Below, piece after piece: positions 59,512-64,000 of a stretch of 64,000 nt of DNA (the stretch's first letter is position 1; every line of letters begins with the position of its first letter). Where the stretch lies: contig JBLIRO010000001.1 in the NCBI GenBank assembly GCA_049472335.1, positions 87,015 to 151,014 on the forward strand. The letters are read 5' to 3'. A program made the translations under genes and the position numbers. The notes under the pieces were generated by a model. The model did not search any database. It was given only the letters and a program-made list of their open reading frames with translations, and had not been told where the DNA came from. The DNA is from a bacterium (GTDB lineage: Bacteria; SZUA-182; DTGQ01; JAFGSM01).

Positions 59512-60217
59512 ATTTCTCTTTCTCTAAATGTCCTAAAATCATTCGGAAGTTATAAAAAATCCCTTATAATTATAAGGTTATGTTTTTTAAGTATTATTTC
59601 CTGATGATTATTTTATCAGTATAGTAAAGATACTGAAAAAATTCAAACTGGAGAGAAATTTCAGGGAATTTCCGACATCTTTTAGATATTAAAATCTATT
59701 ACGACTTGATAAAGATAAAACAACCTAATATAATTAAAATTATAAGTCTGTTAATTATCAATATACATTCTGGTATACAGGATCTCATCTAAAATCTCTT
59801 TGTTGTTGAATCACTTTTAAAGACAAAATTAAATATATTTATAAACCAAGTTTAAAGTTATTTATTATAATAGCTTAATTATGTTTATAAAAATAACAAA
59901 CAAAGAGTATCAAAAGCTTATTTTGCACATTAGAGCCCCGCCTTATGGAATTTCTTGAGGTTTTTGCCTTTTTCAATCATTTAATCAAATGAAATATATA
60001 GATAAGAAGGCAATACCTGATAAATGATTGATAAATTCAAAAGGGCCTAATATTAATATGGCAAAAAAGGATTTATAGAAGTAATTTTTTTGCATTCTTT
60101 GTATATTACTAACAACTTTGATAAAAACATTATTATTGCCTTGAATGCCAATTAGATATCGAGTTGAGGAGTAATTGAATTGGATCCATGGCTGTCAAGG
60201 TCCATGGAGGTAATACA

Positions 60218-60994
60218 ATGAAAAAGATTATTTTGATCCTTTGTGTTGTAATGATTGCAGTGGGTATCTGTCTTACCGGAGCAGAAGCATACTTCGGCGG
60301 CCTCTTTGCCCCGAATGGACTCCTCAGTAGCGCCTATTATGGCGGTCTTGGTTTTTATGGCGGGCTTTATGGCGGGCTCTATGGCGGCCTTGGCCTTTAT
60401 GGCGGAGGTCTTTATGGTGGGCTCTACGGCGGCCTTGGCCTTTATGGTGGAGGTCTTTACGGCCTTTATGGCGGCCTTGGGCTTTTAGGAGGGCTTTATG
60501 GCGGAGGATTGTACGGCCTTTATGGCGGCGGCCTTGGCCTTTTCGGTGGGCTATACGGCCTTTATGGCGGGCTGTCTCAGATTTCTCCTTTATTAACTAT
60601 AGCTCTTCTGTATAACCAGCTTTTCCCTAGTCTGCTAAATCCAGTTCCATCACCGGTCACATCCACACCGATATCCGTTCCCACACCGATTATTACTGTG
60701 CCGACACCAAATATTACAGTGCCGACCCCGCTTCTTACGGTTCCAACTCCAATAATTACGGTCCCAGCCCCGATAATTAATGTGCCAACTCCTATCATCA
60801 CAGTACCGACCCCCATCGTTACAGTACCTACCCCAATCGTTACAGTACCTACCCCAATCATAACAGTGCCAACACCGATTATTACAGTACCGGCACCGAT
60901 TATTACGGTCCCCACTCCGATCGTTCCCATTCCGCCCCCGGTGACTCCGGTTATAACTCCCATAATCCCAATGATGCCGCTGATTATAACTTAA
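60218..60994 (+). CDS. Secreted repeat protein: Gly-Leu-Tyr-rich half followed by about a dozen TVPTPII heptads
   Basis: GGAGG lies 7 nt before ATG 60218. Signal MKKIILILCVVMIAVGICLTGAEA. Then GGLYGGLYGGLGLYGGGLYG… followed by VPTPIITVPTPNITVPTPLLTVPTPII…. Confidence 0.7.
   Translation: MKKIILILCVVMIAVGICLTGAEAYFGGLFAPNGLLSSAYYGGLGFYGGLYGGLYGGLGLYGGGLYGGLYGGLGLYGGGLYGLYGGLGLLGGLYGGGLYGLYGGGLGLFGGLYGLYGGLSQISPLLTIALLYNQLFPSLLNPVPSPVTSTPISVPTPIITVPTPNITVPTPLLTVPTPIITVPAPIINVPTPIITVPTPIVTVPTPIVTVPTPIITVPTPIITVPAPIITVPTPIVPIPPPVTPVITPIIPMMPLIIT
60676..60933 (+). repeat. Coding 21-bp tandem repeat (heptad TVPTPII) with many synonymous differences between units
   Basis: Units such as acagtgccgaccccgcttctt, acggttccaactccaataatt and acagtacctaccccaatcgtt encode nearly the same heptad with different codons. 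Confidence 0.8.
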
Positions 60995-61082
60995 GGGAGG
61001 GCAATTTGCCTGTATTTTGAATCTGTCAAGCATAAGAGATTTTTGCTTTTATCAAAAGATGAAGCAGATATGTAGTATAATA

Positions 61083-61121
61083 AAGTGGAGCGCAAAAGCG
61101 CTCCACTTTATTATTTGTTTT
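61083..61121 (+). terminator. Rho-independent terminator of the repeat-protein gene
   Basis: AAGTGGAGCGC-AAAA-GCGCTCCACTT forms a perfect 11-bp stem, followed by a T-rich tract. Confidence 0.8.
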
Positions 61122-61157
61122 GATTTTCTCTCTAGGCAGGATTTGATCTTTAATTGT

Positions 61158-61199
61158 TGCTTTTGACACTTTATAACCCTTATGTTATGTTAAATTTAA
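61158..61199 (+). repeat. 41-bp repeat copy 1: sigma70-like promoter and/or Xer(dif)-like site
   Basis: The sequence is GCTTTTGACACTTTATAACCCTTATGTTATGTTAAATTTAA. It reads as TTGACA(61163-68)-17 nt-TATGTT(61186-91). TTATGTTAAAT (61185-95) equals the XerD arm of E. coli dif. Confidence 0.5.
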
Positions 61200-61417
61200 T
61201 CAAAAATATTTACATTTAAAATTTTAATGAGACGGCAAAGAAGCTTCATAGAAGATGTAGGGCACGAAAATGATTTTAGCTTAGGGGATATTGTAATATT
61301 TCTATGCAAAAAGCATTTTAAACAACGCCGAATGTAGGGTAGAGTCCAAGTCTTAATAGACTTCAAATGCAAGATTTGGATTTAACTCTTCACTTCGATC
61401 ATATAGGGATAATAAAG

Positions 61418-61717
61418 ATGAATAAAGATGAAGTAATTCGTTTGATGCGGGAACATTCCGGCTTTTTGATGACCGAATATGGAATTTCTAGAATCGGAAT
61501 TTTCGGATCCGTGGCAGAAGGTAATATGACAGAAGATAGTGATTTGGATATAGTTGTTGAATTCAAGAAGCCAATAGGATTTAAGTTCAATAAACTTGTC
61601 GAGTATCTTGAAAATTTGTTCGGAAGAAAGGTTGATGTGCTGACAATAGACGGTATTAAAAATATAAGAGTAAAAGAGGTTGCGAAAAATATCGAAAGGA
61701 CTTTAGTCTATGTCTAA
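61418..61717 (+). CDS. mntA: Nucleotidyltransferase antitoxin (MntA-like)
   Basis: IGIFGSVAEGNMTEDSDLDIVVEF (GS…DxD). The internal ATG at 61418 gives about 99 aa. It overlaps the next gene by 8 nt. Confidence 0.75.
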   Translation: MNKDEVIRLMREHSGFLMTEYGISRIGIFGSVAEGNMTEDSDLDIVVEFKKPIGFKFNKLVEYLENLFGRKVDVLTIDGIKNIRVKEVAKNIERTLVYV

Positions 61718-62039
61718 ACGTGAAGATTCTGCTGTTATTCAAGATATAAAAGAAGCTATCGATAGAATTATATCATATACAGCAAAAATGGATTATGAGG
61801 ATTTCCTGCGTGATTATAAAACACAAGATGCAGTGGTTAGAAATATTGAAATTTTGGGAGAAGCAGCAAAATTACTATCCGAGGAAACAAAAAGAAGCTA
61901 TCCCAATATACCATGGAAAGACATAACAGGCACAAGAGATAAACTGATTCATGACTATTTTGGCGTAAATATTGATATTGTATGGGATATTGCCAAGAAT
62001 GAGATTCCTTTCCTATCTTCACAGTTAAATGATAAATAA
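61710..62039 (+). CDS. hepT: DUF86/HepT-type HEPN toxin
   Basis: …TGTRDKLIHDYFGVNIDIVWD… carries the R-x4-H HEPN motif. 109 aa. Confidence 0.75.
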   Translation: MSKREDSAVIQDIKEAIDRIISYTAKMDYEDFLRDYKTQDAVVRNIEILGEAAKLLSEETKRSYPNIPWKDITGTRDKLIHDYFGVNIDIVWDIAKNEIPFLSSQLNDK

Positions 62040-62224
62040 ACGGCTGACAATCGGGATTATGTTGTGACGTAACCCCTAATAACAAGTGAAATTAAACATT
62101 ACAAGCAATAAATCCTCTGGCGATTTTCCCTTTCTAATAAAACTGACCATACTTTTCTCGCATGAATTGAATAATAATTAAGATGCATCAAGTCCTGGAT
62201 ATCATTCATCAATTTGTGGCCTTT

Positions 62225-62266
62225 AGCTTTTGACACTTTATATACCTTATGATATGTTAAATTTAA
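62225..62266 (+). repeat. 41-bp repeat copy 2 (38/41 identical to copy 1)
   Basis: The sequence is GCTTTTGACACTTTATATACCTTATGATATGTTAAATTTAA. It reads as TTGACA 62230-35, 17 nt, TATGTT 62253-58. No ORF follows for about 460 nt. Confidence 0.5.
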
Positions 62267-62393
62267 CTTTTACTTTGATTATATAGAGATTTTAGGAATT
62301 TTCGAGAATCAGCCTTTTAATTTTTGAAGATTCCTTTTTACATGGAAATTTTAGAAATTAATTAGAAATTTTAGTTCACATTTACGGTCCTTA

Positions 62394-62529
62394 TTATCAG
62401 GTAAAATATACCTGATAATAGGGGAATTTTAAACTTATCAGGTAAAATTGACCTGATAAAAAATTATCAGGAACTTTTTACCTGATAACAGGCTAAAAAG
62501 GGGATTATCAGGTAAAAACGGCTTGATAA
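62394..62529. promoter_or_regulatory. Four 25-bp palindromes TTATCAGG-N9-CCTGATAA (operator/iteron-like)
   Basis: Sites lie at 62394-62418, 62435-62459, 62464-62488 and 62505-62529 (the last has CTTGATAA). An everted copy, CCTGATAAC…GTTATCAGG, lies at 62633-62665. Confidence 0.7.
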
Positions 62530-62533
62530 TACA

Positions 62534-62696
62534 TTACGCCGCTCCGCGGCGTAACGGGGAGCTAACGCTAACACGTTCAGCATTGGGCCGCGCCGCTGCG
62601 CGTCGCAACCCAACGCTGAACGCGACGTACTCCCCTGATAACCAGTGCAAGGCACCGTTATCAGGGTGCGCCGCGCGTTAGCTCCCTGTTATGTGC
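62534..62696 (+). other. GC-rich multi-stem element (attC-like recombination site or structured RNA)
   Basis: Hairpin TTACGCCGC-tcc-GCGGCGTAA (62534-54). Outer stem GGGAGCTAACGC (62557-68) / GCGTTAGCTCCC (62675-86), extendable to TAAC/GTTA. Inner stem 62574-87 / 62609-22 (13 of 14 pairs). Inner stem CCCTGATAAC (62632-41) / GTTATCAGGG (62657-66). Confidence 0.55.
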
Positions 62697-62724
62697 AGAA
62701 TAGGTATGGGAAATTATCAAGTTT

Positions 62725-63621
62725 ATGGCTGAAGTAAACGAACCCAAAAAACATCACTATGTACCTCAATTTTACTTAAAGAAGTTTTGCTGCATAGATG
62801 ACGAAAATAAAGTTCCAACGATAAGTCGTCATAATCCGTTCCTGATCCAAAAGAGAAGTTCAATTGGCAGAATAGGTTATGAAGATAATCTCTATAAAAT
62901 TACTGATGACGAAATTGAATTATGTATAGAAAGGAATCTAAATAGATATATTGAAACACCAATTTCACAGTCTAAGACGTGGGAAAAGATAGATGAAGGT
63001 ATCCCTGAACTATTGTCTGAAGACGATAAATTAGTAATTTATATATTTATTAGGCATTTGGAGTCTCGGAATATAGAAACCCTAGAGTCCTTGAAAAGTG
63101 AACAAGTCCGAATAAAAGATCCTAAATATAGAAATGAATATTCAATAGAAGAGCATATAATGCATAATCAAATTAGCTCCATTCCGGACGGAGTTGATCA
63201 GTTTTATCTGGGAATGTCAGAAAATATTGATCAGTATTTTGAACAGTATGAGAGAGCATCAGTGTCAATATTTGGGTCTAGTATTCCAATACGAACTTCA
63301 ACTAATCCAGTAGTCAATGTTCCAATGCACACATTTCAAAATAGAGAGTTTAACCCAAATGAATTGGCAAAATGGCTACCACTGAGCCCAAAAATTGGCG
63401 CAATGTTATTTCTAAATGACAATTATTGTAACTTCGGAAAATACCAGGTTGTTGAAAATGAGGTCATTAGAACTCTAAATAGACTTTATCTTATTCAGTT
63501 GCTTAACTCACGGACAACTAGGCATATGGTTGCAAGCGATGAGTACATTTTAGATGATTTTGAATGGGCAGGAGTAAAAGTAGATCCTAGAAACCCAAGA
63601 AAGTTTAGGTGTCCTAGTTAG
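62725..63621 (+). CDS. DUF4238-domain protein
   Basis: The N-terminal KKHHYVPQFYLKKF motif is the hallmark I associate with DUF4238. 298 aa. Confidence 0.65.
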   Translation: MAEVNEPKKHHYVPQFYLKKFCCIDDENKVPTISRHNPFLIQKRSSIGRIGYEDNLYKITDDEIELCIERNLNRYIETPISQSKTWEKIDEGIPELLSEDDKLVIYIFIRHLESRNIETLESLKSEQVRIKDPKYRNEYSIEEHIMHNQISSIPDGVDQFYLGMSENIDQYFEQYERASVSIFGSSIPIRTSTNPVVNVPMHTFQNREFNPNELAKWLPLSPKIGAMLFLNDNYCNFGKYQVVENEVIRTLNRLYLIQLLNSRTTRHMVASDEYILDDFEWAGVKVDPRNPRKFRCPS

Positions 63622-63653
63622 GATGTTGGGTAAGGATAAGTATTATAAAAAAA

Positions 63654-63763
63654 GCACATAACAATAGGTTCGAGAGGGAATTGCCCCCGCAGCACTTGTT
63701 TTGTGCTTTAAACAGCACAAAACAATTTTTACTGCGGCAAGCCCCTCAGCCAAAGTGTTATGT
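63654..63763 (+). other. 110-bp imperfect hairpin, attC-like
   Basis: The ends ACATAACA (63656-63) / TGTTATGT (63756-63) pair. Middle arms GGTTCGAGAGGGAATTGCCCCCGCAG vs CTGCGGCAAGCCCCTCAGCC pair with bulges. The apical stem TTGTTTTGTGCT / AGCACAAAACAA is a perfect 12 bp with a 6-nt loop. Confidence 0.55.
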
Positions 63764-63775
63764 TTCTTTATAGAT

Positions 63776-64000
63776 ATGAAATCAGATAAGAAGATAATAA
63801 GAGCTATTTTAATTTTCTTTTTAGGCGTAGCTGTTGGTATCATAGGTATAGCTGTTGTTATCTTATTTTATCAAAAGTCATTTGAGCTGTTTTCAACCAT
63901 AGCTCCAGCAATCACTACATTGTTAGCTGCATTTTTAGGTGCTTGGTTTGCTTATCTTCTGGCAGACAACAAGGAAAAAAGAAAAGAAATAGCTTTGAGA
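63776..64000 (+). CDS. 5' part of a small membrane protein gene running off the window
   Basis: The ATG at 63776 opens MKSDKKIIRAILIFFLGVAVGIIGIAVVILFYQ…TTLLAAFLGAWFAYLLADNKEKRKE with no stop before 64000. It is absent from the ORF track because it is unterminated. Confidence 0.5.
   Translation, partial: MKSDKKIIRAILIFFLGVAVGIIGIAVVILFYQKSFELFSTIAPAITTLLAAFLGAWFAYLLADNKEKRKEIALR

Follow-up and report, generated by a model that had tools for sequence, protein, structure and literature searches.

In integron arrays, a cassette begins with the TTRRRY of its own core site, and AAC/GTT is near-invariant in attC core sites. The rules for recognition by integron integrases, which call for extrahelical bases, an unpaired central spacer and a loose terminal structure, derive from few clinical and Vibrio attC sites. 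Folded attC sites have in common that some bases are extrahelical, that the central spacer is unpaired and that the terminal structure is variable and can be branched (PMC2727003). Gene-less cassettes of Vibrio have been studied with size-matched control fragments of 450–650 bp (bioRxiv 10.1101/2023.11.21.568050). The stretch analysed here, hereafter the window, comprises 64,000 nt of the bacterial contig JBLIRO010000001.1 and carries at 62534–62688 a GC-rich element of 155 nt, for which a preliminary description had offered two explanations: a long attC with a branched terminal structure, or a structured RNA in the 5′ leader of a gene encoding a DUF4238 protein. The boundaries of the element, its homologues in other arrays, the turnover of cassettes at its 3′ junction and the conservation of structure on its bottom (−) strand argue that it is an integron cassette with an attC-type site. 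We consider it probable that the element is a gene-less mini-cassette, essentially one oversized, non-canonical attC folded as a three-way junction, which is mobilised via its folded bottom strand; homologue boundaries, covariation and covariance-model scores define its extent and strand.

A metagenome scan for the exact outer stem of the element retrieved three further copies of 162 nt each, in loci L059 (1824–1985), L060 (1760–1921) and L061 (1539–1700), which are approximately 75% identical to the window copy and 96–98% identical to one another. In all four copies, homology starts exactly at a TT and stops at G (window) or A (the others) right before the next TT. The unit is preceded by ATCAATGG, belonging to attI, in both L059 and L061, by TCGCAACG (...CGCAACG) in L060 and by ATAATACA in the window, and the next cassettes in L059, L061, L060 and the window begin with TTATGTAGCGC, TTGGGAGGC, TTATGTGCGTA and TTATGTGCAGA, respectively. 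The right neighbours are four different cassettes, and the left neighbours are the attI of two integron types or an open reading frame (ORF). The L059 and L061 units lie directly 3′ of the attI (...ATCAATG^G, the caret marking the junction) of an intact integron integrase (IntI), that of L061 scoring 431 bits with TIGR02249. Over the 1987 nt that cover intI, attI and the unit, these two loci are 99.85% identical; their divergence sets in precisely at the 3′ junction of the unit, and cassette turnover therefore happened there. In L060, the unit follows an ORF of 76 aa inside the array, away from attI; no foldable attC was found at the end of this ORF, where the sequence folds no better than its shuffles (z +0.5). 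The 25 nt just 5′ of the L060 unit (1735–1759; GGGCATGTGCGCCGCTGATCGCAAC^G) resemble the invariant arm of the element (GGGCTGCGCCGCTGCGCGTCGCAAC) and may have been left by recombination within another copy, at a secondary core-like site. A covariance model built on the element (R1) and run over 453 kb of collected loci and six further DUF4238 loci recovered only the four copies, no copy was found in scans of viral contigs with three patterns, and BLAST searches against plasmids with the window copy and the L059 copy gave no match.

As a discrete TT...(G/A) unit that occurs in different arrays, in an array that lies beside attI and an integrase gene, the element behaves as a cassette, and it carries no ORF, which makes it a gene-less one. 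No conserved ORF was detected in it: the frame left open in the homologues is interrupted by stops in the window copy, and the indels are not multiples of 3. The 62-aa ORF at 62467–62655 (− strand), suspected earlier of being a by-product of GC-rich palindromes, has no relatives and no frame conserved among the homologous copies, in keeping with that suspicion, and protein-word searches with translations of the element, intended to reveal ORFs annotated across other copies, gave no hits. Locus L041, which has the closest related platform, is 95% identical to the window in the promoter repeat, 70% in the leader and 97.9% in the palindrome block upstream of the element, and its similarity to the window ends at 62530, with none from 62531; beyond this breakpoint, L041 reads ...CATATG^GTTCGGC... 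and continues into a different first cassette. Because L041 shares the platform but not the element, the element occupies the variable first-cassette position. By this sequence comparison, the window copy is the first cassette behind attI in a chromosomal integron that has decayed.

All stems listed in the preliminary description exist when checked directly against the sequence. The 9-bp hairpin (62534–62554) pairs TTACGCCGC (62534–62542) with GCGGCGTAA (62546–62554), that is, the 5′ end of the cassette, whose TT... is part of its own core site R′, with a segment overlapping the inverse core R″ (GCGTAAC, 62549–62555, + strand), whose complement, (G)TTACGC, opens the cassette itself. The inverse core, (GC)GGCGTAA(C), lies only 3 nt beyond the cassette start TTACGCC(GC), and the complementarity of the two produces this hairpin. 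The base helix, delimited from folds and covariation, pairs its 5′ arm (GGGGA followed by GCTAACGC, 62556–62568), which lies at the attC spacer and L-box positions and is fully paired, with its 3′ arm GCGTTAGCTCCCT (62675–62687). It contains the 12-bp outer stem (62557–62568 with 62675–62686), extended by G62556·T62687 and then, as had been proposed, by TAAC (62552–62555) with GTTA (62688–62691). Branch 1 (62574–62622) is a hairpin of 22–23 bp in which 62574–62587 pair with 62609–62622 (13/14 pairs on the + strand) and pairing continues to 62596/62600; its loop and 3′ arm (62590–62621) are identical in 4/4 copies. Branch 2 (62623–62674) is a hairpin with the core CCCTGATAAC/GTTATCAGGG, in which 62632–62641 pair with 62657–62666 (10/10 pairs), and it carries CCTGATAA-N16-TTATCAGG (8-mers at 62634–62641 and 62658–62665), the same 8-mer as in four palindromes upstream. 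The array core site R′ (GTTATGT, 62688–62694, + strand) follows, with the putative crossover at G62688/T62689, where the homology of the copies ends.

Against 200 dinucleotide shuffles, none of which folded equally well in any of the three tests, the 171 nt at 62530–62700 folded with −56.4 kcal/mol (z −7.4) as + strand DNA, −64.0 kcal/mol (z −9.4) as − strand DNA and −95.9 kcal/mol (z −8.7) as + strand RNA. The − strand of the element thus pairs better than the + strand. The GC content of the element, 0.54–0.61 vs approximately 0.23–0.35 in the flanks, is well above that of the surroundings, as had been noticed before.

RNAalifold applied to the alignment of the four copies gave 69 pairs in four helices (−104.8 kcal/mol) for the bottom strand and 55 pairs (−78.5 kcal/mol) for the top strand. 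On the bottom strand of the homologues, 69/69 of these pairs form, 61–62 as Watson–Crick pairs and 7–8 as G·T pairs, with 0 mismatches, whereas the mirrored top strand has 7–8 A·C mismatches at the same pairs. In the window copy, the corresponding counts are 53 and 6; of its 7 mismatches, the majority fall at the branch 2 base, which pairs in another register; one A·C mismatch lies in the base helix on the bottom strand of this copy (62556/62687). Six pairs carry pairing-preserving changes on both sides and seven vary one-sidedly through wobble, values reached by 0/500 shuffles, and shifting the 3′ partners cuts pairing from 97% to 38–50%. Two of the compensatory pairs lie in the 9-bp hairpin (TTGCGGCGC/GCGCCGCAA in the homologues), one is the closing pair of R″/R′ (C..G in the window vs T..A in the homologues, which have CCGCAAT with A^TTGCGG) and three are in branch 2. 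The core of branch 2 in the homologues is CCCCGATAAC/GTTATCGGGG, in which a compensatory change of T-A to C-G falls inside CCTGATAA/TTATCAGG, and the AT-rich base is longer. In the base helix, 13/15 pairs are invariant, and branch 1 is 100% paired on the bottom strand, with five pairs varying by G·T wobble only. A 32-nt stretch (top strand GCGCCGCTGCGCGTCGCAACCCAACGCTGAAC) is identical in all copies and reads on the bottom strand as three core-site-like motifs. Every helix is thus supported, though the covariation comes from one deep comparison and is suggestive, not statistically strong.

The asymmetry between the strands fits what is predicted for an attC, because the bottom strand is the substrate in recombination (PMC2727003), and it speaks against an RNA read from the sense strand. 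A sense-strand cis-regulatory RNA for the DUF4238 gene, such as a riboswitch, attenuator or leader, would be favourably placed, since the element lies between a promoter-like site and the DUF4238 start, 36 nt 5′ of the latter, and the strong fold of the + strand RNA would suit it. However, several results contradict this second of the earlier explanations, and we regard it as highly improbable: the covariance model found no element in six other contexts of DUF4238 homologues (70–86% identical), the element precedes four unrelated genes in its four contexts, the sense strand has A·C mismatches where the antisense strand pairs, and L041 has the same leader without the element. In addition, Rfam gave no match at the gathering threshold over the whole 64,000-nt window; a permissive Rfam scan of 61000–64000 gave only chance-level microRNA and small RNA matches far under the cut-offs, and a search for tRNA and tmRNA found none.

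A small structured RNA gene within a gene-less cassette, read from the bottom strand (which is the intI strand) and regulating, for example, integrase or cassette expression, with the cassette ends as a mere vehicle, would explain the strand asymmetry as well as single-stranded DNA does, since G·U-type wobble gives perfect pairing. Such an RNA would also suit the complete conservation of the 32-nt segment, which exceeds structural need, the lack of the bulges typical of attC and the position of 3/4 copies next to attI and intI. Nevertheless, the unit is paired end to end with 60–65% GC and leaves no room for a promoter of its own, no consistent promoter-like site was found on the − strand in the window, L059 and L060, the downstream flanks, which would have to hold such a promoter, differ in every copy, and neither a terminator-like tail nor an Rfam match was found. 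An RNA gene on the bottom strand is accordingly unlikely. In the window, no T-tract of an intrinsic terminator is present after the stems of the element, and a promoter scan found no promoter-like hexamers within it.

The interpretation as a cassette with an attC-type site is supported in part by the architecture of the site itself. A branched terminal structure, consisting of two hairpins after R″ (7 nt) and a base helix of 5 + 8 bp, is present, and the bottom strand is the better folded one (0/69 mismatches vs 7–8 A·C on top). The core sites point both ways: R″ GCGTAAC and R′ GTTATGT (own R′ GTTACGC) of the window each match RYYYAAC/GTTRRRY at 6/7 positions, and the two ends are complementary and covary among the copies, but those of the homologues depart from the near-invariant AAC/GTT. 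Other properties weigh against it. Extrahelical bases on the R″–L″ arm are absent, the consensus fold having only symmetric 1 × 1 mismatches within the branches, and the homologues pair the whole spacer (GGGGA/TCCCC); in the Vibrio cholerae repeat (VCR), removal of the extrahelical bases together with pairing of the spacer lowered bottom-strand recombination by IntI1 8.5 × 10^4-fold (PMC2727003). GCTAAC, which takes the place of the L box, is oriented directly and not inversely to R″, the homologues have AAT/ATT (CCGCAAT; ATTGCGG/ATTATGT) where the consensus is AAC/GTT, and the invariant 32-nt stretch is not explained by structure alone. The left junction in the window is non-canonical (A^TT without CA(T)ATGG), and with only four copies, three of them nearly identical, the covariation amounts to that single deep comparison. 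A motif-and-geometry scan listed the element under relaxed criteria only (R″/R′ 5/7, with the paired GCTAACG/GTTAGCT as 'L box'), and its minimum free energy as DNA is −65 to −68 kcal/mol vs −12 to −28 kcal/mol for canonical attC in the same arrays. The earlier proposal of a long attC-type site with a branched terminal structure is therefore supported in part, by position, exact cassette-like boundaries, homologues in three other integron arrays and conservation of structure on the bottom strand. The element is nevertheless no canonical attC: neither extrahelical bases nor an unpaired central spacer are present, and the site amounts to an entire cassette without a gene, not to the end of one that carries a gene.

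Considering these results, we propose the following scenario for mobilisation. The bottom (−) strand, when single-stranded, would fold into the three-way junction, and the base helix would juxtapose the inverse core GCGTAAC and the core site (G)^TT.... An integron integrase would then cut and exchange strands between G/A and TT, and the unit would be excised, or inserted at attI or another attC. The excised circle would have the junction ...GCTCCCCA^TTGCGGCGC... (L059 type) or ...GCTCCCTG^TTACGCCGC... (window type). IntI is presumed to act on the element, and the two long branches would serve as its variable terminal structure. The window copy would now be frozen, because the local integrase is gone. 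A bolder version, which is conceivable but doubtful, sees a self-propagating minimal cassette without cargo, whose hyper-stable three-way-junction attC is recombined despite its paired spacer and lack of extrahelical bases, with the junction and the G·T/A·C asymmetry as substitutes, and which is parked by attI as a preferred landing pad or a modulator of cassette capture and expression.

The platform on which the window copy sits, 62102–62533, is on sequence grounds a decayed integron platform composed of an intI remnant, a Pc-like cassette promoter and attI. The remnant is a 45-aa ORF at 62102–62236 (− strand), of which only the first approximately 30 residues are IntI-like before the sequence diverges (12/30 identical to the intact IntI of L061 in BLASTP, E 4e-7), and it shares its position and orientation relative to the promoter and palindromes with intI of related loci. 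A Pfam search of candidate-size ORFs found no integrase elsewhere in the window. The Pc-like promoter lies on the + strand at 62226–62266 and was detected by a promoter scan as TTGACA-17-TATGTT with a TG extension (hexamers at 62230–62258; 95% identical in L041); this site is predicted to act as a promoter. The attI region holds four palindromes of the form TTATCAGG-N9-CCTGATAA at 62394–62418, 62435–62459, 62464–62488 and 62505–62529, separated by gaps of 16, 4 and 16 nt, and TTATCAGG has 15 matches in the window vs 3.4 expected, 9/15 of them in this locus. The attI/cassette junction at 62530–62533 (T ACA^TT) is degenerate as judged from the L041 alignment and the junction consensus, since it lacks the conserved CA(T)ATGG, has A rather than G before TT and reads GATAAT-ACA^TTACGCC. 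This imperfect left junction fits the decay of an inactive platform, though it counts against the window copy being a pristine product of an integrase.

A genome-collection scan for two successive palindromes of this form yielded 55 loci (L004–L058), mainly in Desulfobacterales metagenome-assembled genomes (MAGs) and often several per genome. The palindrome arrays adjoin intI and are located between the start of the integrase gene (MDEVREVMRLHHYSIHTE..., with a divergent promoter) and the junction CCTGATAAT(C/A)AATG^GTTRRRY. This junction was present in 30 of the 55 loci, and the sequences after it are unrelated and usually consist of a short leader and an ORF. The full-length integrases adjoining the arrays in L028 and L051 scored 446 and 434 bits with TIGR02249, for which the cut-off is 265 bits and bona fide IntI here score 431–447 bits. 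Because the arrays sit between intI and the ...AATG^GTTRRRY junctions, the palindromes mark the attI region predicted for these integrons. A reading of the locus as a type III toxin–antitoxin or retron-like system (promoter, tandem hairpin repeats, structured element and gene) was rejected, as the repeats are attI palindromes adjoining integrase genes.

The arrays consist of 2–6 copies with a typical period of 41 nt, and they look like a predicted set of classical inverted-repeat binding sites for a recombinase or regulator. Most copies of the platform (L011, L013, L016, L026, L027, L030, L038, L044, L048, L050, L053, L056 and L058) retain only 20–170 intI codons, with the promoter and palindromes intact in these integrase-truncated platforms, the window included. 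Integrase-less platforms occur several per genome (on eight contigs in one Desulfobacterales MAG and five each in two others), suggesting that the promoter–attI module persists or spreads without the integrase. In L015 (4186–4316) and L012 (516–574), an attC has the last attI half-site CCTGATAAC as its inverse core, and in L021 (1492–1540) the first cassette starts with GTTATCAGG...; judging from these three loci, TTATCAGG may serve this integron clade as an integrase-type core motif. At the same attI type, L010 (1552–1614) has another gene-less first cassette, which carries a perfect 27-bp GC-rich hairpin (GCGGAACCCCGTGACCCGTTCCGCATAAC...), and structured first cassettes without cargo may be recurrent in these integrons.

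The proximity to attI raises another alternative, in which the element is an accessory DNA structure of the integron platform that, when folded, displays additional putative integrase-binding boxes and serves as a preferred landing pad, enhancer or decoy by attI. Branch 2 would offer GATAAC/GTTATC as a candidate box, and the bottom strand of branch 1, whose invariant arm is rich in core-site-like motifs, would offer GTTCAGC-GTTGGGT-TGCGA. The element has the first position, abutting attI, in 3/4 contexts, it stays in L059 and L061 while the following cassette differs, and branch 2 in the window reproduces the half-site duplex CCTGATAA/TTATCAGG of the host attI; in addition, an attC in L015 and in L012 takes an attI half-site, CCTGATAAC, for its R″. 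However, the L060 element lies within an array, away from attI, the sample is tiny, and the homologues carry CCCGATAA/TTATCGGG and not their own attI motif, so the exact half-site match in the window may come from a single compensatory pair change. The match of branch 2 to the host attI half-site may therefore be functional mimicry or, equally, a by-product of that one change, and an accessory role in place of a mobile cassette has a low probability, a little above that of the bottom-strand RNA.

Downstream of the mini-cassette lies the DUF4238 cassette (62689–63757, + strand), with an ORF at 62725–63621 (Pfam PF14022, E 6e-19) followed by its own canonical attC (63656–63763, − strand), in which a motif scan identified R″ ACATAAC, R′ GTTATGT, unpaired spacers and a bulged L box, and which folds with z-scores of −6.5 and −6.9. 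The array R′ G^TTATGT after the element belongs to the DUF4238 cassette and matches the ACATAAC of that cassette's own attC. DUF4238 cassettes elsewhere start with the same TTATGTGC(AGAATA...) and share the inverse core GCACATAAC; those in L002 and L063 are preceded by an unrelated canonical attC and that in L001 by other sequence. A PADLOC search with the DUF4238 protein gave no match. As a likely side effect of the position of the mini-cassette, a Pc-driven transcript would, according to the fold model, carry a structure of approximately −96 kcal/mol just 5′ of the DUF4238 gene. The right half of the last attI palindrome, CTTGATAAT (62522–62530), and ATTATCAAG (62709–62717, just 5′ of the DUF4238 start codon) are complementary, and in a 471-nt RNA fold the two pair and enclose the whole element, possibly by chance.

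Two kinds of mobile element, for which attC-like hairpins are known or suspected targets, follow DUF4238 cassettes elsewhere: a group II intron reverse transcriptase (RVT_1 + GIIM), on the opposite strand, in L063 and L064 (2475–3854), and a Y1 transposase in L002 (10989–11336). Further upstream in the window, the promoter-like repeat of 41 nt with TTGACA-17-TATGTT occurs twice (61159–61199 and 62226–62266, 93% identical), and its first copy lies outside the cassette array, upstream of a mntA/hepT (nucleotidyltransferase/HEPN) toxin–antitoxin pair (61367–62039). A secreted-looking protein of 268 aa is encoded at 60188–60994; one half of it is Gly/Tyr-rich (GGLYGGLYGGLG repeats), and the other half consists of approximately twelve 21-nt tandem repeats encoding PTPI(I/V)TV, with a GC content of approximately 0.5 vs 0.3 in the background. 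A perfect 17-bp terminator hairpin lies 3′ of this gene (61077–61114).

So interpreted, the gene-less mini-cassette is mobile in nature although it departs from two of the three attC rules, and it has been conserved without a gene in integrons that are only distantly related. Should integrases indeed recombine it, what an attC minimally needs would have to be redefined. It would also be a clean case of a cassette with no purpose beyond its own recombination site, with a bearing on the origin of cassettes and on selfish elements in integrons. Detectors based on canonical attC models may miss such sites and place cassette boundaries wrongly, with the consequence here of a spurious 5′ leader or a spurious ORF of 52–62 aa.

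The closest described systems share different parts of this organisation. As in the VCR (123–129 nt), the 3′ cassette boundary has its crossover before TT, the ends are an inverse core and a core, the bottom strand is the one that is folded and selected, and R is separated from L by 5 nt before a branched terminal structure (PMC2727003). Unlike VCR-type attC, the element is gene-free, is 146–153 nt long, has neither extrahelical bases nor an unpaired spacer, and has long, near-perfect branch helices. With the gene-less cassettes of Vibrio superintegrons and Treponema integrons, it has in common proper boundaries, the lack of a plausible ORF, a location in arrays and an expression or placement relative to Pc (bioRxiv 10.1101/2023.11.21.568050; PMC6557892). 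The Vibrio gene-less cassettes, however, measure several hundred bp, have non-attC content and often contain promoters (bioRxiv 10.1101/2023.11.21.568050), whereas the element measures 155–162 nt, of which approximately 7 nt lie outside the attC-like site, is GC-rich and has no promoter-like hexamers. In its fully paired R–spacer–L stem without bulges, it resembles mut20-VCR, a VCR mutant engineered to lack extrahelical bases (Bouvier et al. 2009). That mutant is nearly dead for IntI1, whereas the natural element has evidently moved between arrays, with turnover at its junction, and the integrases of the integrons that bear it are only distantly related to IntI1.

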